The notes under the pieces are model-generated. The model was not told the origin of the DNA. It did no database searches and worked only from the letters and a program-made list of their open reading frames with translations. Positions 2,687-32,237 of a stretch of DNA of 64,000 nucleotides are shown here, in pieces (the stretch's first letter is position 1; the number at the start of each line of letters is the position of its first letter). A program made the position numbers and the translations under genes. The stretch covers positions 9,711-73,710 of the forward strand of contig CAYMAN010000009.1 in assembly GCA_964388455.1 (NCBI GenBank), in the 5' to 3' direction. Source of the stretch: an uncultured Eubacteriales bacterium (GTDB taxonomy: Bacteria; Actinomycetota; Coriobacteriia; Anaerosomatales; JAAXUF01).

Positions 2687-2690
2687 CGGG

Positions 2691-4007
2691 TCAGTCTCGG
2701 CCGACCGATTCGAGCAGATGCAGCGCGCTATCGACGTCCGATGCCTCCTGCGCCCCCGCCGCTCGCGCGCGCGTCCACAACTGAGTTGCAACACCGTCCG
2801 TGTAGTCTCGGCCCTCGATGTCGCCGAGAAGTACGACCGGCGTTCCTGACTCGGCGTTCTCGGCGGCGATGCGCAGGTTGTCGACGTTGCCGTGACCGAA
2901 GGGGACGTCGGACACCGCGATCGCGACGGCCGAACGTGCGAGCTCTGCGACGCGGCTGACGCAGGCGGAGTCCATGGGAGCGAACGGCGGGATGAGTGCG
3001 TAGTCGACCCCGAGCGCCTCGGCGAGTGCCTGGTCGACATCGCCTGCGTTGAGCGCACCGGCCACGACTTCCCAACCCTCCAGCACCAGGCGTCGCATCA
3101 GCTGCGAGCCGCACCCTGAGCCGCCGATGACCAGCACGCGACCGCGCGCAACTGGGGCGACGGCGCCGTCGCGCAGCACCGGCGTCACACTGACCGTCCC
3201 GGTGACGGGGTCGATGCCGACTACCGCACGCACGCCGAACACCTCGCGCACGGTGGCTGTGGTGATGGCGCGCGTGGGGGCGTCTGCGGCAGCGATGGTG
3301 CCCGCGGCGACCACGGCGATGCGGTCTGAGTATCGCGCCGCGAGGTCGAGGTCGTGGAATACCGCCAGCACCCCGATGCCCTCGTTGCGAGCGAGGTCAC
3401 GCACGAGGTCGAGAACCTGCAGCCGATGATTGAGGTCGAGGTGGCTGGTGGGCTCGTCGAGCAGCAGGAGCCGAGGCTCCTGCGCGAGCGCCTGAGCGAG
3501 CGCGAGGCGCTGGAGGTCGCCACCGGAGAGCTCGTCGGTCGGCTTCTCGGCCAGGTGCAGTGTGTCGGTGAGTCGCATCGCCCGTTCGACGACTTCGAGA
3601 TCGTGCGCGCCGGGCACTGCGAATCGCGCGAGGTGCGGGTGTCGGCCCATCGTCACGAACTCGCGCGCCTCGATCGAGAACGCCGCTGAGACCTGCTGCG
3701 GCACGACCCCGACGAGTCGCGCACGTTGCACCGCCGACAGCGCTGCAGAATCGGCACCCGCCAGCGACAGCGTCCCGCCGAGCAGGTCGGCGTCGCCGGT
3801 GACCGCTCGGAGCAGCGTCGACTTGCCGGCTCCGTTGGGGCCCACCAGGCCGACGACTTCACCGGCGCGGACCTCGAGCCTTGCGTCGGAGACGACGACC
3901 GCATCGCCATAACCGACTGTGGCTGCGATGTACGAGAGCAGAGGCGTGATGTCGGTGTTCGTCGGGTCGGTGTTCGTCGGGTCGGGGCCCGTCGGGTCGG
4001 GGCTCAT
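2691..4007 (-). CDS. Iron-siderophore/cobalamin-type ABC transporter ATP-binding protein with an extra ~170-aa C-terminal domain
   Basis: Walker A GPNGAGKST, signature LSGGDLQR and Walker B LLLLDEPTSHLD are all present. The start overlaps the permease stop (ATGA at 4004-4007). The protein is 438 aa, whereas this family is typically about 260 aa. Confidence 0.9.
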   Translation of the reverse strand: MSPDPTGPDPTNTDPTNTDITPLLSYIAATVGYGDAVVVSDARLEVRAGEVVGLVGPNGAGKSTLLRAVTGDADLLGGTLSLAGADSAALSAVQRARLVGVVPQQVSAAFSIEAREFVTMGRHPHLARFAVPGAHDLEVVERAMRLTDTLHLAEKPTDELSGGDLQRLALAQALAQEPRLLLLDEPTSHLDLNHRLQVLDLVRDLARNEGIGVLAVFHDLDLAARYSDRIAVVAAGTIAAADAPTRAITTATVREVFGVRAVVGIDPVTGTVSVTPVLRDGAVAPVARGRVLVIGGSGCGSQLMRRLVLEGWEVVAGALNAGDVDQALAEALGVDYALIPPFAPMDSACVSRVAELARSAVAIAVSDVPFGHGNVDNLRIAAENAESGTPVVLLGDIEGRDYTDGVATQLWTRARAAGAQEASDVDSALHLLESVGRD

Positions 4008-9750: not shown

Positions 9751-10314
9751 CTACTCGGCGGGTGCAGGCTTCTCGGCGATGCGTCGGCGTAGACGGCCGA
9801 GCCCCCACACGCTTGCGACGATCGCGATCGCCACCGTGATGAAACCGATGAGCGGCGCCGCGATGGCGAGCGCCGAGACACCCGCAGCACCGGCATCCTC
9901 GACGGTGGACGCGACAGGAGCACCCGTGCCACCCGTCGCGAGGTTGATGAGCGGACGTGAGGTCGCTTTGATGGTGTGCACCCCACCGGCGATCACAACA
10001 CCCGCTATGAGCGCCAGCCATGGAGCCACCGCGTTCTCACCGGTTGTGGACAGCGCCAGGAAGCCGCCTGCCGCGGGACGCACGAACGTCTGGATCGCGT
10101 CGTTGACGTGGTCGACCGCCGGAACCTTGTCGGCGAAGATCTCGATGATGAGGAACAGGGTGATGAGCAGGATCACCCACCACGTCCCGAGCATGTCGAA
10201 CGGCTCGCGCAGCTGCACCCAACCGACGCGCTGCGCAGCAGCAAGCGCGAGCAGCGGGATGTAGGCGTTCACGCCCGCAGGAGCGGCCAACGTGATTCCT
10301 GTCAGGACGTCCAT
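9751..10314 (-). CDS. DUF4126-domain membrane protein
   Basis: Family-typical motifs are present: NAYIPLLALAAA and IIEIFADKVPAVDHVND. Multi-TM. Confidence 0.7.
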   Translation of the reverse strand: MDVLTGITLAAPAGVNAYIPLLALAAAQRVGWVQLREPFDMLGTWWVILLITLFLIIEIFADKVPAVDHVNDAIQTFVRPAAGGFLALSTTGENAVAPWLALIAGVVIAGGVHTIKATSRPLINLATGGTGAPVASTVEDAGAAGVSALAIAAPLIGFITVAIAIVASVWGLGRLRRRIAEKPAPAE

Positions 10315-10349
10315 GCTCGTGGGCCCTCCCCCATGGTTCGCACATCGCG

Positions 10350-12503
10350 GTGAGCCGCGTGGGCTCGGCTCATTCTAGCCCGACGACACCGCCGGCGGCG
10401 ATTCGGGAATATGCACCAGAGACCACACTCACACGCCTCCGAGAGGACCTCGGTTTGAGCCGCCAGTACCGCGAACTCGTCGCCACGCAGGGCGTGACCG
10501 AGGTCGAACACGTGTGGATTCCCCTTGCCGACGGCACACGACTCTCGGCGAGACTCTGGCTCCCCTCCACTGCGTCGGCCGAGAACCCCGTCCCGGCAAT
10601 CCTCGAGTACATCCCCTACCGCAAGGATGACGCGACCGCGGCGGCCGATGCGGCACGCTACCCCTACTTCGCCGAGCGCGGCTTCGCGGGCGTTCGCGTC
10701 GATCTACGCGGCACCGGCGACTCCGACGGCGTCTGCCGCGACGAATACCTGCGACAGGAGCAAGACGACGCGCTCGAGGTGTTCGCATGGCTCGCCGAGC
10801 AGGACTGGTGCTCCGGGCACTGCGGGATGATCGGGCACTCGTGGGGCGGCTTCAACGGGCTTCAGGTCGCGGCGCGCAGGCCACCGCAGCTTAAGGCCGT
10901 GGTCACCATGTACTCCACCGACGACAGGTACGCCGATGACTGTCACTACCAGGGCGGCTGCCTGCTGGCGAGCGACATGCTGAAGTGGGCCGAGTGGATG
11001 CACGCCCTCAATGCTCGCCCCGCAGACCCGAGGATCGTCGGTGACTCGTGGCGAGAGCTGTGGCTTGAGCGGCTGCGCGAGACACCGCCCTACATAGAGG
11101 CGTGGATGGCGCATCCCACCTACGACGAGTTCTGGAAGCAGGGATCGGTCATCGAGGACTACTCGGCGATTGAGGCTGCGGTGCTGGTGGTGGGCGGCTG
11201 GACGGACGCGTACACCAACGCGGTCCCCCGGCTGCTCGAGCATCTGACGTGCCCGCGATGGGGCATCATCGGGCCGTGGGGCCACGTGGTGCCGTCGCGC
11301 GGGGTGCCCGGGCCCGCGATCGGCTTCCTGCAGGAGTGTCTGCGCTTCTTCGACCACTGGCTCAACGGCGCGAAGAACGGCGTCGAATCCGAGCCGCTCC
11401 TGCGCGCGTATCTGCACGACACGCTGCCGCCGGCCGGTTTCCGCGCCGAACTCCCCGGCCGCTGGATCGCCGAGCAGAGCTGGCCTCCCACGAGCGTCAC
11501 AGGCGAGACACTGGTGCTGACCGGCGACGGGCGACTGGTCGGGCGCGAAGCGAAGATGCTGGCCAACCGCCCGGCCGAACTCGCGATTCTCGGCGACCAG
11601 ACGTGCGGCATAACTGCCGGCGTCTGGTGCGTGAACGGCATGGCCGACGAACTCGCGATCGACCAGCGTGAGGACGACGCCCTCTCGCTCTGCTTCGACT
11701 CCACTCCGCTGCACGAGCCGATCGATCTGCTGGGCAGGCCGGAGCTGCGCTTGACCCTCTCCGCCGACCAGCCGCGCGCGCTGGTCTCGGCTCGGCTGTG
11801 CTCGGTGGCGCCGGATGGTGTGTCGACGCTGGTGACGTGGGGCACGATGAACCTGACGCATCGTCAATCGCGCGAGCATCCTGAAGCGGTGGAGCCAGGC
11901 GAGAGTTACGTGATCTCGCTGCCGCTCAATGCCGTGGGCCAGCGCATCGAGCGCGGACACAGACTGCGTATCGCGATCTCTCCCACATACTTCCCGCAAG
12001 TGTGGCCGTCACCGATACCCGTCACGCTCAAGATCGCCATCGACGGCGCGAGCTCGCTCGTACTGCCAACCCGTGTTTCACAAGCCGAGGATGCGAATCC
12101 GCCGGTCTTCCCTCCGGCCGCGGAATCCGCCCCACTTGTTGGCGCGATCCGGCAGTCGGACAGCAGGACTCGCAGGCGGCACCGTGACCCGGAGACCGGC
12201 GTGGCGACCACGGAAGACCACCAATCCTACTCGGCGCATATCGAGGCCACTGGGACCACGTATACGGAGCGCGGCATCGATCGATGGATCATCGCTCCGG
12301 ACGATCCGCTCTCCGCTCGCATCGTCTGCGACCGCGAGATCACCATCGAACGCGAAGGCTGGCACGTTCGCCTCACGACCACGGCGGAGCAGACGTGCAC
12401 CGGAGATAGGATTCTCACGCATTCAACGCTCTGCGCCTACGAGGACGACGTCCTCGTCTTCTTAGACGATCACGTATCCACAGTGGTGCGTGAGCACTTC
12501 TAG
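10350..12503 (+). CDS. CocE/NonD-family (S15 X-Pro dipeptidyl-peptidase-like) hydrolase
   Basis: ILEYIPYRKDD, the nucleophile elbow GHSWGG, and a large C-terminal beta domain. The GTG start is uncertain. Confidence 0.8.
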   Translation: MSRVGSAHSSPTTPPAAIREYAPETTLTRLREDLGLSRQYRELVATQGVTEVEHVWIPLADGTRLSARLWLPSTASAENPVPAILEYIPYRKDDATAAADAARYPYFAERGFAGVRVDLRGTGDSDGVCRDEYLRQEQDDALEVFAWLAEQDWCSGHCGMIGHSWGGFNGLQVAARRPPQLKAVVTMYSTDDRYADDCHYQGGCLLASDMLKWAEWMHALNARPADPRIVGDSWRELWLERLRETPPYIEAWMAHPTYDEFWKQGSVIEDYSAIEAAVLVVGGWTDAYTNAVPRLLEHLTCPRWGIIGPWGHVVPSRGVPGPAIGFLQECLRFFDHWLNGAKNGVESEPLLRAYLHDTLPPAGFRAELPGRWIAEQSWPPTSVTGETLVLTGDGRLVGREAKMLANRPAELAILGDQTCGITAGVWCVNGMADELAIDQREDDALSLCFDSTPLHEPIDLLGRPELRLTLSADQPRALVSARLCSVAPDGVSTLVTWGTMNLTHRQSREHPEAVEPGESYVISLPLNAVGQRIERGHRLRIAISPTYFPQVWPSPIPVTLKIAIDGASSLVLPTRVSQAEDANPPVFPPAAESAPLVGAIRQSDSRTRRRHRDPETGVATTEDHQSYSAHIEATGTTYTERGIDRWIIAPDDPLSARIVCDREITIEREGWHVRLTTTAEQTCTGDRILTHSTLCAYEDDVLVFLDDHVSTVVREHF

Positions 12504-17241: not shown

Positions 17242-18315
17242 CTAGTCGTCCTCGGGCTGCCTCACGTGACAGCGCACGCAGAACGCGGGCTGATGACACT
17301 CGAAACAGCCGGCTGCGCCGCGCGCCTCGACCTCGAGGAAGTGCTGTTTGGCCCACGTGCCCTTGGTGGGGTCGTAGCTCACGTGGTGGCACATGCTGCA
17401 CAAGTCCGGCTTCTGCTTGTGGCACCTAGCGCACATCGCGCGGTTGGCCTCGGCGTTGATACCGTGCCCTGTCTTGCCCTGCCCCCAGCCCTCGGGGTGC
17501 GGCATCTCGAGGCCGTGACAGTCGGTGCAGAAGGCTTTGGTGTGGCACATGACGCACTGCTTGGGATCGGCCTTGGCAACCACCGCATGTCCGCGGTTCC
17601 ACTTCGCGGTCTTGTGTGACGTCGGCTTGAGCGCGTACCCGACCGGATGGCACACACTGCACTGCGCCGAGGCCGTGGGATACTTGGTCGTGCCGTGGCA
17701 GGTGAAGCACTGCGACATCAGCGACAATGGCGTGCCCCGATCAGGCAGCGGATGCGCAGTGCGGACGTGGCACGACACGCAAGATTTGTTGCGTTTCGCG
17801 TGCTCGGCGTGGTCGATGAGAATGCGGAAACCGGAGGTGGCCTTGCGGTTCACGTCGTGGCACTGCAGACAGATCTCGTCGGCCATAGGCTCCGTGCCGG
17901 GCAGGCGACCGTCGACCGGGTCAGGGTAGCCGCCGCGCACGTGCGCTACGACGTCGCGTGCCAGAAGTGCGGTCTGACTCACGACCGATTGCGGCACTTC
18001 GTACCACCGATGCGGGGCCGTGTGGCATCTCACGCAGCTCACCGCGGCGTGCGCCGACCGCTCCCAGGTCGCATGGCGCGGCTGCATCTCATGACAGCTC
18101 GCGCACAGGATCGGCGACGCGGTCACGACGTCCCACATGCCGAGCAGCACGATGATGCCGAACACGATCGCGACGATTCGCAGCACCCGTGGCCTCGCCG
18201 AGGACGCCGTGGCAGCTGTCGCCGGGGATTCGCCCACGCTTGACTCGGCGGTCAGCTCGGCTGCGCCCGCCTCCTCTGCTGGTCCCTGATCGCTCATGCC
18301 GGAAGTGTGCTCCAC
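17242..18315 (-). CDS. Membrane-anchored dodecahaem cytochrome c with an N-terminal NapC/NirT/NrfH-type tetrahaem domain
   Basis: GTG 18315 lies 5 nt after GAAGGA. One N-terminal TM helix, then 12 CXXCH motifs. The first four follow the NapC/NirT pattern (LCASCHEM..W..S.H....CVRCH ... CLQCH ... H.EH....CVSCH..TAH). Confidence 0.9.
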   Translation of the reverse strand: MEHTSGMSDQGPAEEAGAAELTAESSVGESPATAATASSARPRVLRIVAIVFGIIVLLGMWDVVTASPILCASCHEMQPRHATWERSAHAAVSCVRCHTAPHRWYEVPQSVVSQTALLARDVVAHVRGGYPDPVDGRLPGTEPMADEICLQCHDVNRKATSGFRILIDHAEHAKRNKSCVSCHVRTAHPLPDRGTPLSLMSQCFTCHGTTKYPTASAQCSVCHPVGYALKPTSHKTAKWNRGHAVVAKADPKQCVMCHTKAFCTDCHGLEMPHPEGWGQGKTGHGINAEANRAMCARCHKQKPDLCSMCHHVSYDPTKGTWAKQHFLEVEARGAAGCFECHQPAFCVRCHVRQPEDD

Positions 18316-18316
18316 G

Positions 18317-19189
18317 CTAGTCCTTCACGAGTTCGAGCGTCGGGTTGAAGTTGTCCCTGGGCACCTCGCCGTGACACTTCTTGCAGAATGCGCCCGTGTG
18401 GCACGCCTCGCAACTGCGGTGCTTCTTGACCTGTTCGCCGTGTGTCTCGCGCCACTTGGCGGTGTGCGAGCGCGGACGCATCTCGTGGCAGGTGGTGCAC
18501 CATGCCTCGTTCCACTTGTGGCACCTGGTGCAGTCGCCTCCCTCGGCCTTCTCGGCGTGGACGATCGTCCAGCTGGCGGCCTTGTGCGTCGCGGGTGCGG
18601 CTTTGTCGGTATGGCAGGTGGGGCACCCGTTCTTGGCAGTCTTGCCGTCGTGGCAAGTCAGGCAGCCGGTCATGGGCGGCGTGTTCTTGCCCTCGGGACT
18701 TTTGTCGTGGACCAGGTAGTTGTGGCACTCGATGCAGTCGAGCTTGAGGATCGAGACATGCGCGCGGTGCGGGATCAGGAGGTCACCCTTGGGCGAGACG
18801 GTGCGCAGATCCAGGTGACAGCGCTCGCATGCGGCATTGGTCGGCTTGGGGAACGTTGCCGGTTCCCAGTCCGGCATTGCCAGCGACAGGTAGAACTCGC
18901 CGAGCATTCGCACCGCGTAGCCAGACTGCGGGAGGACCCGCGGTGGCACGTGGCACTGCTGGCAGGTCGTTTTCGCGTGGACCGACTTTTCCCATGCCTG
19001 GTACTTGGGGTTCATGCGTTCGAACCGCTGCAGGAACGCCGGCCGAGTCCCGATGTAGGCCGGCACGATCACCAGAACGAAGATGCCGAAAGCCACCAGG
19101 CCCCACAACAGCAATCGTTTGCGCTTCTCGGCGGGCGTGGTCGGCTGCTCGGTGTCCATGATCTCCGGACTCTCGTTGGTCTCGGGCAT
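18317..19189 (-). CDS. Membrane-anchored nonahaem cytochrome c (paralogue)
   Basis: ATG 19189 overlaps the upstream stop (TGATG). One TM helix and 9 CXXCH motifs. Confidence 0.9.
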   Translation of the reverse strand: MPETNESPEIMDTEQPTTPAEKRKRLLLWGLVAFGIFVLVIVPAYIGTRPAFLQRFERMNPKYQAWEKSVHAKTTCQQCHVPPRVLPQSGYAVRMLGEFYLSLAMPDWEPATFPKPTNAACERCHLDLRTVSPKGDLLIPHRAHVSILKLDCIECHNYLVHDKSPEGKNTPPMTGCLTCHDGKTAKNGCPTCHTDKAAPATHKAASWTIVHAEKAEGGDCTRCHKWNEAWCTTCHEMRPRSHTAKWRETHGEQVKKHRSCEACHTGAFCKKCHGEVPRDNFNPTLELVKD

Positions 19190-20058
19190 CAGTGGCACTT
19201 CCCGCAGAACTTCTTCTCGTCGTGGCAGACGAGGCAGCCCTTGCCGCCCGTCGTCGCACGCTCGGCGTGGCCCGTCTTCCAATTACCGACGTGCGTCGCG
19301 GGACGCCGTTTGTGGCAGTCGGCGCAATAGTCAGGCGTCCAGTTGTGGCACTTGCCGCAGTCCATCGTCTCCGACATCGTGCCGTGCACCTTGAGCCAGT
19401 CCTTGCGCTCGTGCGTCTCGGGCGTCTCCTTGCGGGTGTGACAGTCGGTGCACTTGTTCGATGCCTTCTTGCCGTCGTGGCAGGTCTCGAGACACATCTC
19501 CATCTCGGGACGGTTGAATCCCCGGTTGTTCACCGTGTGCACCAGATCCTTGTGACACACCGTGCAGTTCATTCCGAGGACCTCGACGTGCGCCCGGTGC
19601 GGAATCAGCAGGTCGCCGTTGGGCGAGACCTGGCGGTAGTCGGTATGACACTTCTGACAGGCTTCATGCGTGGGCGGCTCGAGCAGGTTGGTCTCGTTCG
19701 CACCCTGCGCGAGCTGCGAGTAGAACGCCGGGATCGACCTGGCCGAGAAGGACGCAAACCCCTTCACGCCCGGCTCGACGTGACAGCTCACACAGCTCAT
19801 ACGGCCGTGCGTGGACGTGCGCCACGCCTCCATCCGCTCATGCATGCCCGGGTAGCGTGCGTAGTATCCCGGCTGCAGCGTGGAGAACACCGGCAGCACC
19901 AGCAGGAAGACGACCAGCGCGAGCAGCGCGCCGATGACGATGCGGCGCGTTGGGCGCAGCTTCTTGGGCGCGGGGGCGTCGGCGTGGGGCGCTTGGGCCG
20001 CCGGCGTCTCCGCGACCTTGTCGTCCGACGGGCTCAGGGTGTCGTCGCGCTCGTCCAC
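19189..20058 (-). CDS. Membrane-anchored cytochrome c, 8 CXXCH + 1 CX3CH (paralogue)
   Basis: GTG 20058 directly abuts the upstream TAG stop. One TM helix. CLETCH lies at 19477-19494. Confidence 0.9.
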   Translation of the reverse strand: MDERDDTLSPSDDKVAETPAAQAPHADAPAPKKLRPTRRIVIGALLALVVFLLVLPVFSTLQPGYYARYPGMHERMEAWRTSTHGRMSCVSCHVEPGVKGFASFSARSIPAFYSQLAQGANETNLLEPPTHEACQKCHTDYRQVSPNGDLLIPHRAHVEVLGMNCTVCHKDLVHTVNNRGFNRPEMEMCLETCHDGKKASNKCTDCHTRKETPETHERKDWLKVHGTMSETMDCGKCHNWTPDYCADCHKRRPATHVGNWKTGHAERATTGGKGCLVCHDEKKFCGKCH

Positions 20059-21072
20059 CTAGCGCATCTCCTTGAACTGCTTGTGGCAATCCTCGCAGTA
20101 CTGCTTCTTGTGGCACTCGAGGCAGCGTGCCTCGTTCTCGCCCAACTTCGAGTGGCCGCCGATCCAGGTGTCGGTAGAGCCGTGGAAGTCCGGTCGCGTG
20201 GTGTGGCATTCCTGGCACTGCGCATCGGACACGTGGCAGAGCAGGCACTTGGGCCGATCCTTGAGCGCCTCGGCGCCGTGCTGCTTCATCCAGGTCTTCT
20301 TGGTGTGCAGCACCTCGATAGCCTTCAGGCTGGTCTGCATCGGCCGGGCGGTGAACACCGGCGTCTTGCCGGTGGTGTGACACATGGTGCACTGCGCAGC
20401 GGTATGGCAGGTCTCGATGCAGCCGTTCGCACCGACGCGCTGAACCACTGCGGGGTGATCGACCTTCCACTGCACAGCGGTCTCGCCCAGTGCGTGGTGG
20501 CAGGTGAAGCAGTCCGTGCTCTTCTTGGTGCCGACGTGGCAGCCGTACGACACGCACACGCCGGAAAACGGCATCTTCTTATGCTTCACCATCACGGTGG
20601 GCTGGTGCGCGGTCCACTTGTGACAGGTCACGCAGTCGCGCGTCTCGCTTGCAACGCGCATGTGCGCGGGGTGCGGGATGCGGCTGGTGCGCTTGATGTC
20701 GTCGCTCCGGTCCGTGATGTGACACGAGCGGCACGCATCGCGCGTCGGCCGATCGAACTTCAGGAACCTCGTGGGCGCGTTGCGGCTGAGCAGCCCGGCG
20801 TAGAACTCCGCCGAGACGGCCAGCTGGTAGCGGACCTGACCGCGCGCGGGGACGTGGCAGCTCGCGCACGGGATGTCCTGGTGCGTTGATGCGGCAAGTG
20901 TCGTCGAGCTTTTCGCCAGCGAGTGGAACCGGGAGAAGAACGCCGGTTGCGTCGCCGCGATCATCGGCAGGATGGCCAGCACGACCACGGCCACCAGGAT
21001 GCCGACGGCGATCCACTTCACGGTGAGCGGGTTGATCCCCCAGCGCGACTTCTTGGTCTCGTTCGGGCTCAT
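20059..21072 (-). CDS. Membrane-anchored cytochrome c, 9 CXXCH + CX4CH + CX3CH (paralogue)
   Basis: ATG 21072 lies 7 nt after the nrfD-like stop. One TM helix. CVSYGCH (20536-20556) and CIETCH (20404-20421). Confidence 0.9.
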   Translation of the reverse strand: MSPNETKKSRWGINPLTVKWIAVGILVAVVVLAILPMIAATQPAFFSRFHSLAKSSTTLAASTHQDIPCASCHVPARGQVRYQLAVSAEFYAGLLSRNAPTRFLKFDRPTRDACRSCHITDRSDDIKRTSRIPHPAHMRVASETRDCVTCHKWTAHQPTVMVKHKKMPFSGVCVSYGCHVGTKKSTDCFTCHHALGETAVQWKVDHPAVVQRVGANGCIETCHTAAQCTMCHTTGKTPVFTARPMQTSLKAIEVLHTKKTWMKQHGAEALKDRPKCLLCHVSDAQCQECHTTRPDFHGSTDTWIGGHSKLGENEARCLECHKKQYCEDCHKQFKEMR

Positions 21073-21079
21073 CGGCTGG

Positions 21080-22414
21080 TCACCCGACCTTGGCGGTGTC
21101 AGCGGCGAACTCGGGGGTCAACGCGGGTCCGCGGTGCGGCGTCGGCTCGGCGGCGGGCTCGAGCGCGGGCTCCGGCGGGTCGTAGGGCGACGGGCCGTGA
21201 TGCGCATGCTCGGCGAGCTCCTCCTCGGGCACGTGCAGCGGGAGGATCTTGGTGGCGGCCGTCATGATCAGCAGGCCGAACGATAGGATGAAGATCGCGA
21301 TGCCGACCTCGGTCAGGCTCGGCATATACGGCGGCGTGAACTGGCCGAGGGGGTTGACCGCGAAGCCCATCGCCATGAGCGAGTAGCGCTTGAGGAAGAT
21401 CGCGAGCACGTACATCGCCGCCGCGGTCAGCTGAACCGCCGGCAGATGTCGCGTGCTCTTGCGGGACAGCAGGATGAACGCGGTGATCCCGAGGATGAGC
21501 ACAGGGACAAAGGCGAACGCGTAGTCGCCGGTCAGGAACTCGGCGAAGCGGATGGTGTGGCCCGGCTTGGCCGAGGTCGGCCAGAAGATGGTGAGGATCT
21601 CAACGACCAGCAGGAAGAGGTCGATGATGATGACCGTCGCGAGCAGCGTCGAGAGGCTCCGGAACATGCTCGGCTTGAACTTGGTGACCTTCAGCTTCTG
21701 CATGATGTAGGCCGAGATCATCAGGAGTGCTATGCCCGACGCTGTGGCCGAGGTCAGGAAGATCGGGACCATGACGGCCGAGTTCCACAGCTCGCGCGAC
21801 TTGTTCATCGAGAGCACGAACGCCGTCGTGGTGTGGAGATAGACCGCGAACGGGAGCGCGATGAGCGTCATGCGGGTCGCGAGTTTCTCGCCGCCCTTGC
21901 CGGTGATGAGAATCCACAGGTCGACGAAGCAGATGATCATGTAGATGTTGGCCGCACTACCGGTGTAGACGAACGGCGAGGTCACGTTGGGCGTGAGCAG
22001 CATGTAGACCGCGCGCCACGGGCGCTCCATGTCCGTGATGATGCCCATGAGCGCCATCATGACCAGCACGCCGGCCTGCAGGACAGCGATACGGGAGAGC
22101 GGCCGGAACTGCTCGGCGCCAAAGAGGTGGACGCTGGCGTAGACCACGAGCCCGCCCGCCGAGAGCCCCACGTAGTACATATAGTTAGTGAACCAGAGGC
22201 CCCACGGGTAGTTGTCGCGCATCGCCATGACGGCGCCGCCTTCGGTCATCGCCGCGCCCCATGACATGAGGCCGAGGATGAGGCCGCAGCCGAGCAGCGA
22301 GACGAAGGCCCAGTAGCGCGGGCTCGCGTTCAGTACGGCGCCGACGTTCCAGTCGATGCCGATGAAGCGCTTGATGCCGGGTCGAGGTGTGGACACGAGA
22401 CTCACGCCCATCAC
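21080..22414 (-). CDS. NrfD/PsrC-family polytopic membrane (quinol-interacting) subunit
   Basis: A 444-aa protein with many TM helices and an NrfD-like N-terminus (YWAFVSLLG..., NYPWGLWFTNYMYYVGLSAGG). Start overlaps the upstream stop (ATGA). Confidence 0.9.
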   Translation of the reverse strand: MMGVSLVSTPRPGIKRFIGIDWNVGAVLNASPRYWAFVSLLGCGLILGLMSWGAAMTEGGAVMAMRDNYPWGLWFTNYMYYVGLSAGGLVVYASVHLFGAEQFRPLSRIAVLQAGVLVMMALMGIITDMERPWRAVYMLLTPNVTSPFVYTGSAANIYMIICFVDLWILITGKGGEKLATRMTLIALPFAVYLHTTTAFVLSMNKSRELWNSAVMVPIFLTSATASGIALLMISAYIMQKLKVTKFKPSMFRSLSTLLATVIIIDLFLLVVEILTIFWPTSAKPGHTIRFAEFLTGDYAFAFVPVLILGITAFILLSRKSTRHLPAVQLTAAAMYVLAIFLKRYSLMAMGFAVNPLGQFTPPYMPSLTEVGIAIFILSFGLLIMTAATKILPLHVPEEELAEHAHHGPSPYDPPEPALEPAAEPTPHRGPALTPEFAADTAKVG

Positions 22415-23367
22415 CCCACATACCAGATCATAGGTTCATTGCCGTACTCTTCCTTGAGCCGCATGACGCGGCGGGTCTTCAGCAGAATCGAGACCTCGCT
22501 CTCGGGGTCGTTCAGGTCCCCGAACTTGCGAGCGCCGACCGGACACGCCTCGGTGCAGGCGGTGGTGCCGCCGTTGCGCGTGCGCTGGACGCAGAAGGTG
22601 CACTTCTCCACGACGCCGGCCTTCTCATGGAGAGGGACCTTGGGGTTGATCTCGGCCTTAGGGACCTCGGGCTCGACCCAGTTGAAGTGCCGCGCGGCGT
22701 AGGGGCAGGTGACCATGCAGTTGCGGCACGCGATGCACTTGTCGTAGTCGATGACCACGATGCCGTCCGGGTCCTTCCAGGTCGCGATGACCGGGCACCC
22801 GTAGACGCACGTGGGCTTGGCGCACTGCATGCACTGGACGGGCAGGTACCACTTCTCGGGGTCGCCACCCTCTTTGTACTCGGCGTTGGAGTGCTCGAGG
22901 TCGAAGCCGCCCACGTCCATCTCGAGCACCTGGATGTAGGTGAAGCCGGAATTGCGGCCGATGTTGTTCTCCTTGACGCACGCGTAGACGCACTTGCGAC
23001 AGCCGATGCAGGCCTTCACGTCGATGACCATCGCCCAGTTCTGATCGCCGGGCTCATCGGCGTAGCTGACCGTGTGGCCGGGGTAGTTGACGGGGTGGTT
23101 CTCCTCGATGATGTGGTCGATCGCCTCGTTGCCGGTGGACTCACGCGCGGATTCCTCGGCGATGGCGACCTGCGGGAGGGCCGAGACCACCGCGGGGATG
23201 ACGCCCGCTGCCACGACGCCGGCGCCGATGCCGAGACTCTCGAGGAAGCGTCGGCGCGAGACCGTGTGGCCGGGCTCGCAGGCTCCCGGCTGACACGCAC
23301 CCGGTTCAGGAGCGCCGGGTACGGTTGCACCGGGCTGCTGCGCCCCGGGCACGATGGGCTTGCTCAT
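22411..23367 (-). CDS. Tat-exported 4x[4Fe-4S] ferredoxin-type subunit (NrfC/PsrB/HybA/ActB-like)
   Basis: ATG 23367 overlaps the upstream stop (ATGA). Twin-arginine motif SRRRFLESLG. Four Cys clusters: CIGCRKCVYAC, CMQCAKPTCVYGCP, CIACRNCMVTCP, CTFC...CTEACP. Confidence 0.9.
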   Translation of the reverse strand: MSKPIVPGAQQPGATVPGAPEPGACQPGACEPGHTVSRRRFLESLGIGAGVVAAGVIPAVVSALPQVAIAEESARESTGNEAIDHIIEENHPVNYPGHTVSYADEPGDQNWAMVIDVKACIGCRKCVYACVKENNIGRNSGFTYIQVLEMDVGGFDLEHSNAEYKEGGDPEKWYLPVQCMQCAKPTCVYGCPVIATWKDPDGIVVIDYDKCIACRNCMVTCPYAARHFNWVEPEVPKAEINPKVPLHEKAGVVEKCTFCVQRTRNGGTTACTEACPVGARKFGDLNDPESEVSILLKTRRVMRLKEEYGNEPMIWYVG

Positions 23368-24116
23368 GTGCGTGCCCTTCCTAGTATCAGCCAGCCGATG
23401 AGACCGGCGGCGATGACGATGAGGACCGAGGCTCCGAGGGTGAGCCACAACGGCGTGTGCACCGGCGGCGCGACGGGCGGAGATGCGAGCGGCGTGAACA
23501 CAGCGCGTTCCGAGACCGCGCGCACCTGGAAACCGGTGCCGACAAACGGAAGCAGCGGACCGGCGTAGATCCACTGCGGGCTGTGCGGGTCGTGACACCC
23601 TGCGGCGGTGCACTTGGCGAGCCGCTTGCCGTGGGTGCCGGCCAGCCACTCCTTGTACTTGGGCGAGTGGCACTTCTCGCAGACCCTGGCGACGTCGCCC
23701 TTGATGTCGACGGTGGTGCCGTCCATGGTCTTGAGCTTGCCGGGGTTCTTGGCGGCGTCGTCGTGGCAGACGAGACACGCCTCGCCTTCCGCGGCCAGTC
23801 GATCGTGACCGACGAGCTTGACCTGATGCCCCTTGAAGTCGTTGGGCAGCTTCTTGGTCGGCTTTCCGCCCGCGCCCATGACCACCGGATGGCAGTCCGT
23901 GCACGGGTAGAAGAACAGATCGCCCGAGGCGGCCTGCCCGGCAAACGCCGCGGGCGCGGTCGCCAGAACAACCGATGCGACCAAAACGAGAAGTAGGGAA
24001 ACAACTACGAAAGCCCCGCGTGACCAGGGGCGGCTCCGGGCCGTGAGTCCCGGATCTGTGAACGAATGCTGCACGTCTATGGTATTGACACCACCTTGGT
24101 CGCGAGTTGTTCCCAC
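23364..24116 (-). CDS. Tetrahaem cytochrome c3-like protein with signal peptide and C-terminal TM anchor
   Basis: GTG start. Signal peptide ending AFA-GQ. Haem motifs CTDCH, CLVCH, CEKCH and CTAAGCH (CX4CH, 23592-23612). The C-terminal hydrophobic helix is LWLTLGASVLIVIAAGLIGWLIL. Confidence 0.85.
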   Translation of the reverse strand: MGTTRDQGGVNTIDVQHSFTDPGLTARSRPWSRGAFVVVSLLLVLVASVVLATAPAAFAGQAASGDLFFYPCTDCHPVVMGAGGKPTKKLPNDFKGHQVKLVGHDRLAAEGEACLVCHDDAAKNPGKLKTMDGTTVDIKGDVARVCEKCHSPKYKEWLAGTHGKRLAKCTAAGCHDPHSPQWIYAGPLLPFVGTGFQVRAVSERAVFTPLASPPVAPPVHTPLWLTLGASVLIVIAAGLIGWLILGRART

Positions 24117-24193: not shown

Positions 24194-24260
24194 ATGCCCA
24201 TTCCGACGTCGTCGGCTATGGTCAGGCATGAAAAGTGCCGCGGTTTCCAAAGGAGCGCAC

Positions 24261-24944
24261 GTGACCAAACGCGTTCTGGTCGTCGATGACGAGGAATCGA
24301 TCCTCAAGGTGGTCTCCTACGCCCTGTCGCAAGCGGGCTATGAGGTCCACACCGCCGCCGACGGCACCGGCGCCGAGTTCATGTTCTCCGAGGTCAAACC
24401 GGATCTCGTCATCCTCGACGTCATGCTGCCCGGCAAGTCCGGACTCGACGTCGCACGCGACCTGCGGACGCACTCCAATACCCCCATCATCATGCTCTCC
24501 GCGCGCGGGGACGAGGTCGACCGCATCCTCGGCCTCGAGTTTGGCGCCGATGACTACGTCACCAAGCCGTTCTCGCCTCGCGAGCTCGTCAGTCGCGTCA
24601 AAGCGATCCTGCGTCGCGTCGACACCGTCCCGGACGCTGCCGCGTGCCTCCAGGTGGGCGACCTCGAGATCGACACGCTCGCTCGGCAGGTGAAGTTGTC
24701 GGGGCAGGCGATGCACCTGACCAGCTCCGAGTACGGCATCCTGCTGTATCTCGCCCGGCACCCCGGCACCGCGTACTCGCGCCAGGCGATCCTCTCGGCG
24801 TTGTGGGAGGAGTCACCGGTGGGCGACGAGCGCGCGGTCGACGTACACATTCACAACATCCGCGAGAAGATCGAGGAAGATCCCAAGAACCCGACGTATC
24901 TGCTCACGGTCCGTGGCTACGGGTACCGGCTGAGAGAGTCGTAG
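24261..24944 (+). CDS. OmpR/PhoB-family response regulator
   Basis: GTG 24261 follows AAAGGAG. Receiver domain (VLVVDDE, DLVILDVMLPG) plus a winged-helix output domain (LLTVRGYGYRL). Confidence 0.9.
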   Translation: MTKRVLVVDDEESILKVVSYALSQAGYEVHTAADGTGAEFMFSEVKPDLVILDVMLPGKSGLDVARDLRTHSNTPIIMLSARGDEVDRILGLEFGADDYVTKPFSPRELVSRVKAILRRVDTVPDAAACLQVGDLEIDTLARQVKLSGQAMHLTSSEYGILLYLARHPGTAYSRQAILSALWEESPVGDERAVDVHIHNIREKIEEDPKNPTYLLTVRGYGYRLRES

Positions 24945-24951
24945 GCCCGCC

Positions 24952-26736
24952 ATGCCGAGGAAGCCGTGGCGCGCGTCGATCCGCCTGTGGCAGACTTCGC
25001 TGTTCGTCGCCGTCATCATGGTCGCGATCCTGATTCTGTCCGGATCGCTCTCGGCGGGGCTCAAGACCACGTTGACTCAGATGTCTGAGGCAAACGAGCT
25101 GCGCAACGCATCCGCGCTCGCGCGCCGGCTCGAGGCCGAGTTCCCGCTTACCGCAGCGAGCATCGAGCGCGTGCGCCAGGACCTGCTTGAGTATCGCGAC
25201 ATATATGGGTCGAGCATCTGGGTCTACAACGCGTCGGGCCGACTCATCGACTCGGCCAATGACAGCGGGCCGGGTCAGGAGGCGCTCGACGCCGCCCGCG
25301 CGGCCGTGAAAGCCGGCGACACCGCCTATGCGACCGTCGACCTGCGCGCGGGTGGGTGGGTCGTCGCCGCCAAGCCGATCATCGCCGCCGACGGCAAGAC
25401 TGAAGGCACCGTGGTGACCGCCGGCTCCGTGGCCGATTCGCTCGCAATCCTCGCCGCGGTCCGCTTCCGGCTGTGGATCACCTTCTGGGTATCCCTGCTG
25501 GTGGCCGGGTCGCTCGGCTACTGGTTCTCGTCGCTGATGGGCAAGCGCATCCGCGAGATGTCGGAGGCCGCCATCGCGATCGCCGACGGCGACTTCGAGC
25601 AGCGCCTCCCGACCGGGTACGTGCCGGATGAGATCTACGACCTCGCCGACTCCTACAACCGCATGGCCGTGAGCCTGGGCGAGGCGTTCGGCGCGGTGCA
25701 GGAGAGCCAGCAACGACTGTCAGCCGTGGTCGCGTCGATGGCCGAGGGGCTCGTGTCGTTTGACTCCAAGGGCGTCGTGCGCGTCATCAACCAGGAGGCC
25801 GCTCTGCTGCTAGGGCTGGGCAATCCCGGCGACGGAATCGACCGTGAACTCGTAGGCACACCCGCCGAGGAGTTGGCCCCCGATGCAGAGGTGCTCGATA
25901 TCATCCGCACGGGACTCGTCGGCGACAGCGTCGCCAAGACCGTGGGCCTGGGCGGCTACACCGTGCTGCTGCACTGCACGCCACTGATCGGTACCACCGG
26001 CAACCTGCGTGGCGCCGTGCTCCTGCTCGCCGACGTGACCGAACAGCAGCGCATCGAAGACGCGCAGCGCCGCTTCATCGCCGACGCGAGCCACGAGATG
26101 CGCACGCCGCTCGCAGCACTCAAGGGCATCCTCGAGCTGCTCATCGACGGCGCCGCCGAGGATCCTGCCGTCCGAGACGACTTCCTCTCGACGATGCAGT
26201 TCGAGGCCGACCGTTTGGGCCGCCTCGTCACCGACCTGCTCACACTCGCACAACTCGAGGCCGGTAGCCTGCAGCTCAAGGTCACCTCGGAGTCCGCAGC
26301 CGACCTGCTCGGCAGCGTCGCCAGCGTCATGAACACCCTGGCCGAGCGCGCCGGAGTCACACTCGCGGTCGACCTCCCCGACGGCGACGTCCGCGTGATG
26401 GCCGACCGCGATCGCGCCGTACAGGTCCTGCTCAGCTTCACCGACAACGCCCTCAAGCACTCCCCCCGAGGCTCGACCGTACGCCTGCGTGCCGTTCGCC
26501 GAGACGAGCGCGTCCTCTTGGCCGTAGCCGACGAGGGCTCCGGCATCAACGCCGAGGAGCTCACGCGCGTCTTCGAGCGTTTCTACCGGGCCGATGCTGC
26601 ACGCGCCGGCGGTGGCGGCGCGGGCCTGGGCCTCGCGATCGCCAAGGAGATCGTGGAAGCGCACGGCTCCAGCATCGAAGTGCACTCCGAGCCGGGCACG
26701 GGAACCACGTTCGGCTTCGAGCTGCCGATCGCGTAG
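24952..26736 (+). CDS. Sensor histidine kinase (two TM helices with an extracytoplasmic loop, then HAMP, PAS-like, HisKA, HATPase_c)
   Basis: H-box ADASHEMRTPL and the G-boxes GAGLGLAIAKE / GTGTTF. TM helices at about aa 12-35 and 160-185. Confidence 0.9.
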   Translation: MPRKPWRASIRLWQTSLFVAVIMVAILILSGSLSAGLKTTLTQMSEANELRNASALARRLEAEFPLTAASIERVRQDLLEYRDIYGSSIWVYNASGRLIDSANDSGPGQEALDAARAAVKAGDTAYATVDLRAGGWVVAAKPIIAADGKTEGTVVTAGSVADSLAILAAVRFRLWITFWVSLLVAGSLGYWFSSLMGKRIREMSEAAIAIADGDFEQRLPTGYVPDEIYDLADSYNRMAVSLGEAFGAVQESQQRLSAVVASMAEGLVSFDSKGVVRVINQEAALLLGLGNPGDGIDRELVGTPAEELAPDAEVLDIIRTGLVGDSVAKTVGLGGYTVLLHCTPLIGTTGNLRGAVLLLADVTEQQRIEDAQRRFIADASHEMRTPLAALKGILELLIDGAAEDPAVRDDFLSTMQFEADRLGRLVTDLLTLAQLEAGSLQLKVTSESAADLLGSVASVMNTLAERAGVTLAVDLPDGDVRVMADRDRAVQVLLSFTDNALKHSPRGSTVRLRAVRRDERVLLAVADEGSGINAEELTRVFERFYRADAARAGGGGAGLGLAIAKEIVEAHGSSIEVHSEPGTGTTFGFELPIA

Positions 26737-26906
26737 CACGCCGGGCACACGAGCGCCCTGTTGCAGTCCGCGATGCTCACGAAACCCTAACAAGACAGAA
26801 ACCGAGCGCGAACCTACGCCGCTTGGAACGGGGTCATATTCTCTGTAGCAACTTGAGACGGAATTCGCGTGTCCACCGGGCGGCGAATCGTTGGAGGGAA
26901 AAGGTC

Positions 26907-27470
26907 ATGGCAGTCTTCTTCGCAGGAATCCTCATCGTAGTCGGGCTCGTGAGCGCAGTCGCCGTCGCGGTCGCGGTCCCGCTCCTCTTCGGCCTTATGG
27001 CATTCGATGTGGCCGAGTCCCGCAAGAATGCGGTCGTCTCCCCCAAAGACGCACCGCTCCGTATCGCGGTCGAACGTGGCGTCGCTCGCGCTTTCGTCAT
27101 CGCCGGCGGTGCGTTCTGGTCAGTCGCGATGTTCATGGGCCTCACTTCCGGCGGCTCTTCCGGCGCCGTGATGCTGGGTGCGTTCGTACCGCTGGTCGCC
27201 GTGGCAGCCACGCTGATCATCGGCTGGTACTACGAGCGCGCCGCTGCGGTGCTGCTGGTCGCAGCTTCGTTCGCAGTGCTCGCATGGGGCGTCGTCTACC
27301 AGTTCGAGGCTGGCGTGTGGCTGATCATGACGTTCGCACTCCTCGGCCCGATGCTCACCGCAGCCGTGCTGTTCTGGATGGCCCGCACCGAGCAGGAGCA
27401 GTTCGAGTTCGCGATGGCCGCCAGCCCGCAGCTCGCCCCGATCTTCTCGGCAAGGAGCACGATCAGCTAA
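26907..27470 (+). CDS. Hypothetical integral membrane protein
   Basis: ATG 26907 follows GGAGGG. Multiple (about 5-6) hydrophobic helices. No recognised motif. Confidence 0.55.
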   Translation: MAVFFAGILIVVGLVSAVAVAVAVPLLFGLMAFDVAESRKNAVVSPKDAPLRIAVERGVARAFVIAGGAFWSVAMFMGLTSGGSSGAVMLGAFVPLVAVAATLIIGWYYERAAAVLLVAASFAVLAWGVVYQFEAGVWLIMTFALLGPMLTAAVLFWMARTEQEQFEFAMAASPQLAPIFSARSTIS

Positions 27471-30650: not shown

Positions 30651-32237
30651 ATGAACCACAGAACTCGGAGAACCGCGTGCGCACGCAGCTGTCTGGTGGC
30701 GTTCTCGCTGCTGACCGGTCTACTGATTGCCGCATCTGCGATCCCCTCGGGGGCGTTCGCCGCACCATCGCCGCATGTGAGCGCCACCGCCAACACCACG
30801 AGTTGCAGCGCGTGTCATCGCGTACACAATGCTCCCGCGGACTCGATGTTTTTGGGTGCCGCTGACGCTTCCGGTTCGATCACGGCCTCGTGTCTGTCCT
30901 GCCACAACGGCAGCGATAGCGATGCCTCCAACATTGTCGACGGGTCCTCTGACTCCTTCGGCCAGCCCAGCGGACACACCCTCAGCGCCAATAGCGCGGG
31001 CACAGCGGATATCGATGGCTGCGCCACGTGTCACGATGCCCACGGCTCATCGTCCGAGACGCGCCGGATACCTGCGAAAGAGATCAACGGCGTCGCGATC
31101 TCATCGGCGGGTAACCAGTCGTGCCTCGCATGTCACGCGACGAACGCAGACTGGTTTGGGCCCGGCTATCCCGAGGCAGACGCCCCCACGCGCGACGCGG
31201 CCGGCTACCCGGTTGCCGGAACGTGGCCGGGCAAGGCCTCCTACGAGTCGACCTCCAACGCGCATCGGCTGATCCCGGAGTCGACGCGGACCGTCGGCGT
31301 CAGCGAACCGATTCGTCGCCAGCAGGGCGACTGCACCTACTGTCACGGCGCGCACGGTGGCGCGAACGACTACGACGGCCTCAAGGCCACCTACACCGTG
31401 CCGACACAGGCGACACTCGCCTCAGACACCGCCGACGGCTCGTACGCGGCGCTGTGCTTCACATGTCACGGTGGCGATAGGCCGGCTGGATTCGCCACCA
31501 CACCGGTCGACATCAAGAGCTTCGCCACGGCGGGCGGCGCCGGTGGTCACTCGGTCGTCACCTCCGGCGGCACGCTGCCGGTCGGCTCTCCGCTGCCGTG
31601 CTTCGAATGCCACAACCCACACGGCTCCACACGCCAGAACAGCTCGCTGCTCTCCGACGAGCGCGGCGCGTCACTCGCAACCACCAACGCCGCGGACGTC
31701 CGTGCGTTCTGCTTCACATGCCACACCACGAGCGACAGCGCATCGGGCTGGAACAGCGTCACGAGCACCTACACCGCAGTCCCCGCAGCCGAGGAAGTCG
31801 TCGGCCTCTCCCGCCAGGCCGGCGTGCTTCGCCTCCCGGCAGTCGCCGCCCATGAGCAGGCCGCGGCGGACTCGTGCTACACCTGCCACGGCAACAGCTA
31901 CGCGGCGGGCGGCTCCAACGTGCACAATCCCGGCGAGGCAACCGTCGCGAACTTTGGCAGCAACCTAGCCTCGACCACCGACGGCGCGATGGTTCCGTCG
32001 GCCACAGCCGATGCGACCGCCACCGTCGATACCAGCGCGTCAGTCGACGCGACGGTCAGCATCCCGACATCGCCGACAGTGCCGGCAACCGACACGCTTG
32101 TGCCGAGCTGGTCGGATCTGGGGACGCCGTTCCTGGAGAGCACGCCGACACCGCTGTCGGGGTCGCTGCTCGAGTCGCTGACATCATCGATGCCGTCGTC
32201 GGACTCTGCGACGGGCTCCTCGACACCGTTGCCGTAG
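30651..32237 (+). CDS. Secreted nonahaem cytochrome c (doubled-CXXCH type) with a Ser/Thr/Pro/Ala-rich C-terminal tail
   Basis: Signal peptide ending AFA-AP. Nine CXXCH motifs, several of the form CxxCHxxHG (CATCHDAHGS, CTYCHGAHGG, CFECHNPHGS). The last ~110 aa are low-complexity S/T/P/A/D. No TM helix or LPXTG motif is seen. Confidence 0.85.
   Translation: MNHRTRRTACARSCLVAFSLLTGLLIAASAIPSGAFAAPSPHVSATANTTSCSACHRVHNAPADSMFLGAADASGSITASCLSCHNGSDSDASNIVDGSSDSFGQPSGHTLSANSAGTADIDGCATCHDAHGSSSETRRIPAKEINGVAISSAGNQSCLACHATNADWFGPGYPEADAPTRDAAGYPVAGTWPGKASYESTSNAHRLIPESTRTVGVSEPIRRQQGDCTYCHGAHGGANDYDGLKATYTVPTQATLASDTADGSYAALCFTCHGGDRPAGFATTPVDIKSFATAGGAGGHSVVTSGGTLPVGSPLPCFECHNPHGSTRQNSSLLSDERGASLATTNAADVRAFCFTCHTTSDSASGWNSVTSTYTAVPAAEEVVGLSRQAGVLRLPAVAAHEQAAADSCYTCHGNSYAAGGSNVHNPGEATVANFGSNLASTTDGAMVPSATADATATVDTSASVDATVSIPTSPTVPATDTLVPSWSDLGTPFLESTPTPLSGSLLESLTSSMPSSDSATGSSTPLP

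Follow-up and report, generated by a model that had tools for sequence, protein, structure and literature searches.

What function can be expected of an operon in which four membrane-anchored multihaem cytochromes follow a putative quinone-interacting module? This question is raised by a 64,000-nucleotide (nt) stretch of contig CAYMAN010000009.1 (the window, in which all positions are given), where four cytochrome genes, labelled cytA to cytD following gene order in the direction of transcription, form the last part of a seven-gene operon behind a tetrahaem cytochrome (cyt0) and genes for an NrfC-like and an NrfD-like protein (Table 1). The host is an uncultured, presumably single-membrane actinobacterium, and its nearest relatives are labelled as metagenome-assembled genomes (MAGs) of Coriobacteriia or Actinomycetes. 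We lean towards the view that the seven genes encode a menaquinol-oxidising, membrane-anchored haem-wire complex for electron export, a reading that the sequences place slightly on the probable side. The four-gene array itself has been confirmed and stands well above chance. It holds 38 of the 59 CxxCH motifs among the seven open reading frames (ORFs) of the window with at least two such motifs, and the strict pattern of the di-haem cassette described below occurs in 49 of 3489 ORFs of the retrieved loci, nearly all of which are cytA-D orthologues (some as frameshifted fragments) or cytD-like multihaem relatives in the loci L007 and L011-L015. The first-pass annotation, which had placed four paralogous anchored cytochromes at 17242-21072, has the span exactly right, and a hydrophobicity scan has found one N-terminal hydrophobic stretch, the transmembrane (TM) anchor, in each protein. 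A cleavable signal peptide in cytA-C, raised by the sequence IAA-TQ behind this stretch in cytA, is considered less likely, as the stretches are of TM length and coincide in position with the TM anchor of the family. The GC content at third codon positions (GC3) is 0.84-0.91 in the frames of cytA-D, with a genome GC of ~65%, and therefore identifies the minus strand as the coding one. The cytC gene starts with the ATG at 19189, overlapping the cytB stop as TGATG, and a longer ORF of 321 amino acids (aa) with a TTG start is an artefact. All junctions of the seven operon genes overlap or abut (ATGA, GTGA, TGATG; 0-7 nt), which fits a stoichiometric co-assembly of the products, and a promoter and terminator scan across the operon has given no signal above background.

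Evidence for electron export comes from a kinship that the first-pass annotation had missed. Judged by alignment, cytA-D are full-length homologues of ImdcA and PdcA of the heat-loving Thermincola, decahaem cytochromes that belong to a pathway proposed for Gram-positive extracellular electron transfer (PMC7911101). Compared by BLASTP with the sequences of Thermincola ferriacetica (ImdcA, Tfer_0070; PdcA, Tfer_1887; supplementary Fig. S4 of PMC7911101), the four proteins show 21-28% identity over about 265-360 aligned positions with E values of 5e-8 to 6e-28. Residues 40-289 of cytB, the best match of ImdcA, align with its residues 23-341 (28% identity over 326 aa, E 6e-28), and residues 45-350 of cytD with ImdcA 18-341 (E 1e-21). 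The alignment with these two cytochromes contains 35 invariant columns including ten haem motifs, and ImdcA itself scores 54.8 bits on the Pfam family NNT. The module order is also shared: a NapC/NirT head is followed by a c7-like part with a conserved Met and by di-haem cassettes with an H-x-W-x-H motif. In Thermincola, ImdcA retains its N-terminal signal sequence uncleaved and has been purified from the membrane fraction, whereas PdcA, which keeps the haem-1 motif, has a cleaved signal peptide, purifies as a soluble protein and has been proposed to carry electrons in the next step toward CwcA in the wall and the reductase OcwA at the surface (PMC7911101). The proteins described here differ from this pair in that they carry 11, 9, 9 and 12 haems instead of ten, have much shorter loops inside the cassettes, occur as four tandem paralogues co-encoded with an NrfCD-type module in an actinobacterial host, and combine, in three of the four, the absence of haem 1 with a TM anchor, which is the reverse of PdcA with its haem 1 kept and its signal cleaved.

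The head of cytD has been found to correspond to what was originally claimed for it, namely a complete NapC/NirT domain succeeded by eight further haems, with 49.2 bits on Pfam Cytochrom_NNT (PF03264; cut-off 24.1; profile positions 10-173 of 174) and twelve CxxCH motifs in the protein. Its TM helix (aa 39-73) is followed by CASCHEM, CVRCH, CLQCH and CVSCH in register with the four-haem NapC/NrfH references, which reach 68-110 bits on the same family, and NrfH of known structure (PDB 2j7a_C) is matched at E 5e-6 with the single sequence and at 1.5e-8 with a 73-sequence profile. The likeness to NapC, NirT, NrfH and CymA (PF03264; NrfH 2J7A) comprises the TM helix, the four motifs in register, CxxCHEM and an Arg-Asp pair; unlike these proteins, cytD bears the eight additional C-terminal haems and a Ser at the position of NrfH Lys82, and cytA-C are devoid of haem 1. 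The Arg-Asp pair (R120-D121), matching NrfH Asp89 in the alignment, has been retained by 71-72 of 73 homologues, D121 alone by 72 of 73, and the Met of CxxCHEM (M77) by 60 of 73. Although the NrfH model TIGR03153 is the best NCBIfam match of cytD, its 60.3 bits lie under the equivalog cut-off of 134.2 and an adjoining NrfA gene is missing, so that cytD is not an NrfH equivalog. Among the NapC-derived cytA-D, a quinol site can be placed by sequence only in cytD, and haem 1 of cytD is possibly a direct entry point for menaquinol electrons.

In the other three paralogues this site has decayed. The N-termini of cytA-C align with haems 2-4 of the cytD head, in agreement with the former statement that they lack only the first haem, and their profile matches that of four-haem NapC/NrfH proteins with an hhalign probability of 98.8% (E 5e-17, 117 columns), by which the doubt whether these N-termini are homologous to NapC/NirT at all is answered. 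Single sequences score lower, since cytC reaches 21.8 bits on NNT, below the cut-off of 24.1, and 36.5 bits on the NrfH model, and cytA and cytB are unlisted for NNT. In the same hhalign comparison, the string QPAFFSRFHSL is aligned onto SQPSFCASCHEMQ, and the position of the haem-1 CxxCH reads FFSRF, YYARY or FLQRF in all cytA-C orthologues, with both the Cys and the His residues lost. The shared post-TM motif QP.FF.RF noticed in the first-pass annotation is hence present, but it is excluded as a new anchoring signature, since it falls on the haem-1 site, of which it is, as the alignment indicates, a relic. Because haem 1 is missing, cytA-C are predicted to be incapable of acting as quinol dehydrogenases of the NapC type.

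The haem inventory is larger than had been counted. Canonical CxxCH motifs number 9, 8, 9 and 12 in cytA, cytB, cytC and cytD, of which the twelve of cytD were correctly reported; three sites of non-canonical form had been overlooked, one in cytB (CLETCH) and two in cytA (CVSYGCH, CIETCH), all of them invariant among orthologues, which brings the totals to 11, 9, 9 and 12 or 41 sites and leaves the reported density of one haem per 30-32 residues correct. In cytD, 24 Cys, 22 His and M200 are invariant across 73 homologues, and the invariant His and Met residues of cytA-D suffice for bis-His ligation of almost every haem. The Met just before haem 5 (M200 in cytD) is conserved family-wide, also in cytB, cytC, ImdcA and PdcA, and is a possible sixth ligand for one of the haems. 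For the whole operon, 45 haem sites and four [4Fe-4S] motifs have been obtained, all predicted at the outer face from signals for twin-arginine translocation (TAT) or Sec export and from anchor positions.

Behind the heads, the C-terminal halves are built from a recurring di-haem cassette, as initially described with strings that have all been recovered. It spans ~40 residues of the form H-x2-9-W-x3-6-H-x7-14-CxxCH-x3-7-CxxCH, is conserved among orthologues and occurs in 2, 2, 2 and 3 copies in cytA, cytB, cytC and cytD. Like Paired_CXXCH_1 (PF09699) and c7 'nanowire' repeats such as GSU1996, these halves contain close CxxCH pairs in repeats, and haems 4-6 resemble a c7 trihaem unit, with E values of 0.007-0.05 for those of cytD against c7/PpcA-family trihaem cytochromes in the PDB. 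Unlike in PF09699 proteins, the cassette region remains at or below the threshold of that family: with a cut-off of 20.6, the cytD C-terminus scores 20.4 bits and the excised cassettes of cytC, cytB and cytA 6.4, 15.8 and 7.1 bits, while whole cytB reaches 24.1; on Pfam C7, the region scores 18-21 bits (cut-off 24.8). A profile of 46 cassettes has given no full-length match to any PDB chain, only motif-level ones. The concern that the cassette might be a named domain with a different function has consequently found no support, as the Pfam scores are sub-threshold and a full-length PDB match is absent. When the 133-residue cassette region of cytD was searched against 1.84 billion representative proteins, 909 were retrieved at E<=1e-3 and 228 at E<=1e-10, and the top matches include proteins in which a NapC head is joined to about 9-12 cassettes, giving 26-32 haems at about 21-24 residues per haem. 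In four of the matches (P0155, P0157, P0162 and P0189), a length of 660-725 aa accommodates a NapC/NirT head, 28-32 CxxCH motifs and a series of about 9-12 cassettes in tandem. Another one (P0200) combines a cytochrome b/b6 domain, a monohaem c domain and 7 cassettes, and a further one (P0229) an N-terminal multihaem domain, a membrane domain of the b561/Ni_hydr_CYTB type (sub-threshold, 27.4 vs 30.1 bits) and 8 cassettes. The repeated joining of the cassette to quinol-oxidising membrane heads independently supports a role as conducting extension, and the earlier idea of modular haem rods gains from both the long arrays and these fusions.

Upstream of the array, an NrfCD-type module is present, in which an NrfD-family polytopic subunit and a TAT-exported four-cluster ferredoxin stand side by side. 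The twin-arginine signal of the latter indicates export to the outer face, and its best PDB matches are ActB of alternative complex III (ACIII; 6f0k_B, E 6.5e-34) and PsrB (2vpw_B); for the NrfD-like subunit, sequence comparison has yielded no PDB match. The cytochrome cyt0 shows weak C7, Paired_CXXCH and NrfB-like matches (E 0.012 for the last) and weak, non-specific ones in the PDB. In NCBIfam, the module comes closest to DsrO/DsrP and QrcC/QrcD; it scores 176.6 bits on DsrO (cut-off 200), 143.6 on DsrP (350), 151 on QrcC (400), 61 on QrcD (570), 108 on NrfC (378) and 31 on NrfD (348), so that the equivalog levels of DsrMKJOP, QrcABCD, NrfABCD and HmcABCDEF are not attained, and DsrMK, QrcAB or NrfA genes do not occur in the operon. 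The composition resembles that of NhcABCD, of DsrJOP in DsrMKJOP, of ActABC in ACIII and of NrfBCD, all of which combine a multihaem cytochrome at the outer face, a TAT-exported four-cluster protein and a cofactor-less NrfD-like subunit; unlike in these systems, a catalytic, DsrMK, ActDEF or NhcD-type partner is lacking in the operon. A review of NrfD-family complexes does not have this gene set among those it describes (PMC8076601). The first-pass annotation had considered the pairing of a NapC-type with an NrfCD-type entry unusual, a view that goes too far in the light of Geobacter sulfurreducens Cbc4, which combines the NapC/NirT-family tetrahaem cytochrome CbcS with an FeS protein of four clusters and a subunit integral to the membrane (CbcS, CbcT, CbcU) and has been proposed to pass menaquinol electrons to periplasmic cytochromes. 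By description only, the two systems agree in co-encoding a membrane-anchored NapC/NirT-family cytochrome with FeS and integral membrane subunits, but Cbc4 possesses one tetrahaem cytochrome with all haems bis-His ligated, whereas here a separate tetrahaem cyt0 is accompanied by four NapC-derived cytochromes with 41 haems.

The same module allows for the opposite direction of flow. Electrons from outside, delivered by reduced humics, Fe(II), a syntrophic partner or a periplasmic-type dehydrogenase, would then reduce menaquinone at NrfD, as QrcABCD does in sulfate reducers, and cytD would serve as the other arm of a redox loop. Multihaem chains are reversible, their direction is not fixed by sequence, and the NrfC- and NrfD-like subunits score on QrcC and QrcD as well as on DsrO and DsrP. 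The textbook complex Hmc combines an NrfD-like subunit with a second quinone-interacting membrane subunit. DsrMKJOP likewise unites both in one complex (PMC8076601). However, all Qrc and Dsr scores are far under the equivalog cut-offs, neither a QrcB-like subunit nor a hydrogenase or formate dehydrogenase has been found nearby in the window, and the characterised relatives ImdcA and PdcA have been assigned to outward transfer, so that we regard reverse flow as improbable.

A second alternative concerns the acceptor. At positions 1-1848 (plus strand) the window encodes an NrfA-like protein of the cytochrome c552 family (Pfam E 2.6e-45) with a lipoprotein-type signal (LMLGGC) and a CVQCK motif of the active-site type; it contains six CxxCH and one CGDEGCH, has a ~260-aa N-terminal extension with extra haems, and its ORF may begin before the window. 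An NrfH or NrfB gene has not been found beside it within the window. The operon could accordingly represent a quinol-oxidising hub feeding soluble-substrate reductases of the outer face, chiefly this lipoprotein, with cyt0-NrfC-NrfD as analogue of NrfBCD and cytD as analogue of NrfH. Such a role would supply the CxxCK protein with the donor that is missing beside its gene, the order cytochrome, NrfC, NrfD mirrors that of E. coli nrfBCD as known from textbooks, and both the weak NrfB-like match of cyt0 and the preference of cytD for the NrfH model among NCBIfam families would agree with it. It is nevertheless an unlikely assignment: the NrfA-like gene lies 15 kb off with unrelated genes in between, in none of the related loci does an NrfA homologue lie 10 kb or less from the operon, cytD attains 60 bits where the NrfH model asks for 134, 41 haems in four anchored proteins go far beyond the needs of an NrfA donor, and the closest characterised relatives are extracellular electron transfer cytochromes. 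Service of cytD or of cyt0-NrfCD to this particular protein has been ranked low for the reason that its gene is not syntenic in any related locus.

Electron export is further addressed by the distribution of the operon. A search with cytD has found 401 relatives at E<=1e-3; in each of the 120 that have been listed the identity is 52% or more, 109 of these carry 12 CxxCH, and the few named ones are annotated as 'NapC/NirT family cytochrome c' from MAGs of Coriobacteriia or Actinomycetes. Among species-representative genomes, the order cyt0, NrfC-like, NrfD-like, cytA, cytB, cytC, cytD recurs in L002-L006 with nearly identical haem counts, and L007 and L010 keep the operon with cytD moved upstream of cyt0, in L007 on the other strand; the linkage of cytD is in these two loci retained while its position is flexible. 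L007 additionally contains an 11-haem relative downstream of cytC and the response regulator gene (listed features 2384-3355, minus strand, and 9920-10906, plus strand). In L008, L009 and L010, operon genes are split into many short frame-shifted ORFs, probably by indel errors of assembly and not by pseudogenisation. In a tree, the orthologues from six MAG lineages group by paralogue into separate clades (47-67% identity), cytB and cytC are sisters (37% identity), and cytD, which keeps haem 1, is basal. The serial duplication proposed at first therefore stands as far as paralogy is concerned, but a recent or local origin is ruled out by the four clades, which mark the array as an old, fixed operon design. 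Across relatives the haem number spans 9 to 32, and Candidatus Aquicultor has tandem 12-haem copies. The cultured Bacillaceae species Neobacillus vireti carries, at positions 8520-17501 of L015, a 10-haem gene with a NapC head in one cluster with a 12-haem gene and with genes for a TPR protein, an NHL beta-propeller and three additional multihaem cytochromes, of which one has a Big_5 domain; L016 (Bacillus sp.) has been listed with this cluster, and the set resembles extracellular electron transfer genes in a testable organism. A description of the present operon has not been found in the open-access literature on multihaem cytochromes of Coriobacteriia/Actinomycetota, on NrfD/NrfH or on ImdcA, an absence that is no proof.

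This conservation bears on a third alternative, according to which the four paralogues are condition-specific versions of one function instead of subunits of one assembly. Geobacter employs ImcH, CbcL and CbcBA at different redox potentials, and the number of haems and the set of His/Met ligands do vary among the paralogues. Three of the four, however, are without the quinol-site haem and would offer no alternative entry points, the genes overlap or abut in a single transcription unit with no terminator signal above background between them, and gene order and number are fixed across lineages; we consider this version highly unlikely.

If electron export is adopted, menaquinol would be oxidised at the NrfD-like subunit and the electrons would pass via the NrfC-like protein to cyt0, with a possible second entry where menaquinol is oxidised directly at haem 1 of cytD. 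They would then spread through the membrane-tethered haem rods cytA-D, which would relay them from the surface of the membrane into the zone of the wall, and continue to secreted or surface cytochromes, e.g., the 9-haem protein at 30651-32237, and to acceptors outside the cell, for instance Fe(III) minerals or humic substances. In this scheme, cytA-C with their missing haem 1 might be 'retired' quinol dehydrogenases kept as anchored wires. We have counted in its favour the homology to ImdcA and PdcA, the conservation of operon, haem counts and regulator pair, the cassette arrays and the precedent of Cbc4, as well as the Neobacillus vireti 10-/12-haem cluster with its NHL, TPR and multihaem genes. 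Among the cultured Anaerosomatales, a coriobacterial order, one is an obligate Fe(III) reducer, and 17-18 multihaem cytochromes are encoded in each of the two isolates; this, too, has been taken as support.

Several points weigh against the export scheme. Sequence does not fix the direction of flow, and the NrfCD module scores about equally against QrcCD, a quinone reductase. Retention of the haem-1 motif is, by analogy with the soluble, signal-cleaved PdcA, no proof of quinol activity, Ile or Leu takes the place of M77 in 13 of the 73 aligned orthologues and 25 of the 120 listed homologues, and the equivalent of NrfH Lys82 is the Ser mentioned above. A terminal reductase is not encoded in the operon, the candidate 9-haem partner adjoins it in only one related locus (L004), and the N-terminal tethering of all four cytochromes leaves unexplained how the chain would reach through a thick wall. 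The AlphaFold2 model has a confident head, but its cassette region is only moderately confident (predicted local distance difference test, pLDDT, 56-80), and Foldseek has found no structural neighbour of the model in the PDB. A more far-reaching version, in which all seven products assemble into one supercomplex, would comprise two menaquinol sites, an NrfD-type one that may translocate charge and the NrfH-type haem 1 of cytD, wired into a 45-haem bundle in which the 'dead' quinol dehydrogenases cytA-C have been repurposed as haem rods from an expandable cassette. We judge this rather doubtful; if true, it would constitute a terminal for electron export that conserves energy and is peculiar to single-membrane Actinomycetota, and it would point to a group of soil iron or humic reducers that has so far gone unrecognised.

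Table 1. Features of the operon and its surroundings, with positions in the 64,000-nt window
Feature	Position	Strand	Basis
cyt0, tetrahaem cytochrome, operon gene 1	23364-24116	minus	3 CxxCH and invariant CX4CH; N-terminal signal, C-terminal TM helix; 8 Cys and 8 His invariant
NrfC-like ferredoxin	22411-23367	minus	Four [4Fe-4S] motifs, twin-arginine signal SRRRFL, Pfam Fer4_11 and related
NrfD-like polytopic subunit, putative quinone-interacting	21080-22414	minus	Pfam NrfD 119 bits; 8 or more hydrophobic segments; identity of 66-85% in related loci
cytA, 337 aa, 11-haem, TM-anchored, two cassettes	20059-21072	minus	9 CxxCH, invariant CX4CH and CX3CH; 22 Cys and 22 His invariant
cytB, 289 aa, 9-haem, TM-anchored, cytC sister, two cassettes	19189-20058	minus	8 CxxCH and invariant CX3CH
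cytC, 290 aa, 9-haem, TM-anchored, NapC head without haem 1, two cassettes	18317-19189	minus	18 Cys, 17 His and Met173 invariant
cytD, 357 aa, 12-haem, TM-anchored; complete NapC/NirT head, c7-like trihaem stretch, three cassettes	17242-18315	minus	
Four-haem NapC/NirT/NrfH-type head of cytD, aa 44-192, including TM helix, CASCHEM (haem 1) and R120-D121	17740-18186	minus	Pfam, alignment with NrfH 2j7a_C
Trihaem c7-like stretch in cytD (haems 4-6, aa 167-223), containing invariant Met200	17647-17817	minus	Pfam Cytochrome_C7 48.9 bits
Three tandem di-haem cassettes of cytD, aa 231-350	17266-17625	minus	Regular expression and orthologue conservation
OmpR-type response regulator, divergent from operon	24228-24944	plus	70-86% identical, same position in L002-L007 and L009
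Sensor histidine kinase, divergent from operon	24952-26736	plus	60-64% identical, same position in L002-L007 and L009
215-aa membrane protein, no Pfam family	26823-27470	plus	45-61% identical homologues beside kinase in L002-L009
Secreted 9-haem cytochrome, Ser/Thr/Pro-rich C-terminal tail (~100 aa)	30651-32237	plus	Paired_CXXCH_1 78 bits, MtrC/MtrF II-IV 55 bits

In the related loci, the operon is always accompanied by the divergently oriented regulator, kinase and 215-aa membrane protein, and this two-component system probably controls its expression. Across MAGs, the response regulator (up to 86%) is far more conserved than the cytochromes. The secreted 9-haem cytochrome is encoded 6.5 kb from the operon in the window, and in L004 a 59%-identical orthologue directly follows cytD; its tail is as expected for a wall-spanning or glycosylated tether and makes it a candidate wall or surface partner. 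Elsewhere on the plus strand, a 1499-aa ORF at 57200-61699 belongs to no Pfam family at E<=1e-4 and has a GC3 of 0.72, lower than its neighbours. A canonical catalase is encoded at 46645-48252 (Pfam 624 bits). Its presence in a genome whose other equipment is for anaerobic multihaem respiration suggests that the cell meets oxygen or peroxide at oxic-anoxic interfaces.

Taken as a whole, the first-pass annotation has drawn the outline correctly, but it overstated the novelty of the pairing, misjudged the age of the duplications and overlooked the kinship with ImdcA and PdcA. Real interest attaches to three traits: the anchored paralogues that lack haem 1 (three of the four), the fixed association with an NrfCD module and with a two-component system of its own, and the unnamed expandable cassette. 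The last is a structurally unsolved repeat that can be enlarged to proteins of ~30 haems, has been joined to three kinds of quinol-oxidising head, and is a candidate building block for engineered protein wires. The three paralogues without the quinol-site haem provide a natural experiment that can help to separate the quinol-binding from the merely conducting parts of NapC-type proteins. The electron route from the quinone pool to the outside of Gram-positive, single-membrane bacteria is known only in outline, from Thermincola and Carboxydothermus. With this operon, the ImdcA/PdcA architecture is seen to be widespread among uncultured Actinomycetota of soils and sediments. There it is tied to an NrfCD-type quinone module in a seven-gene design that is fixed and regulated, and the operon offers a concrete gene marker to predict metal or humic respiration in Coriobacteriia-like MAGs.

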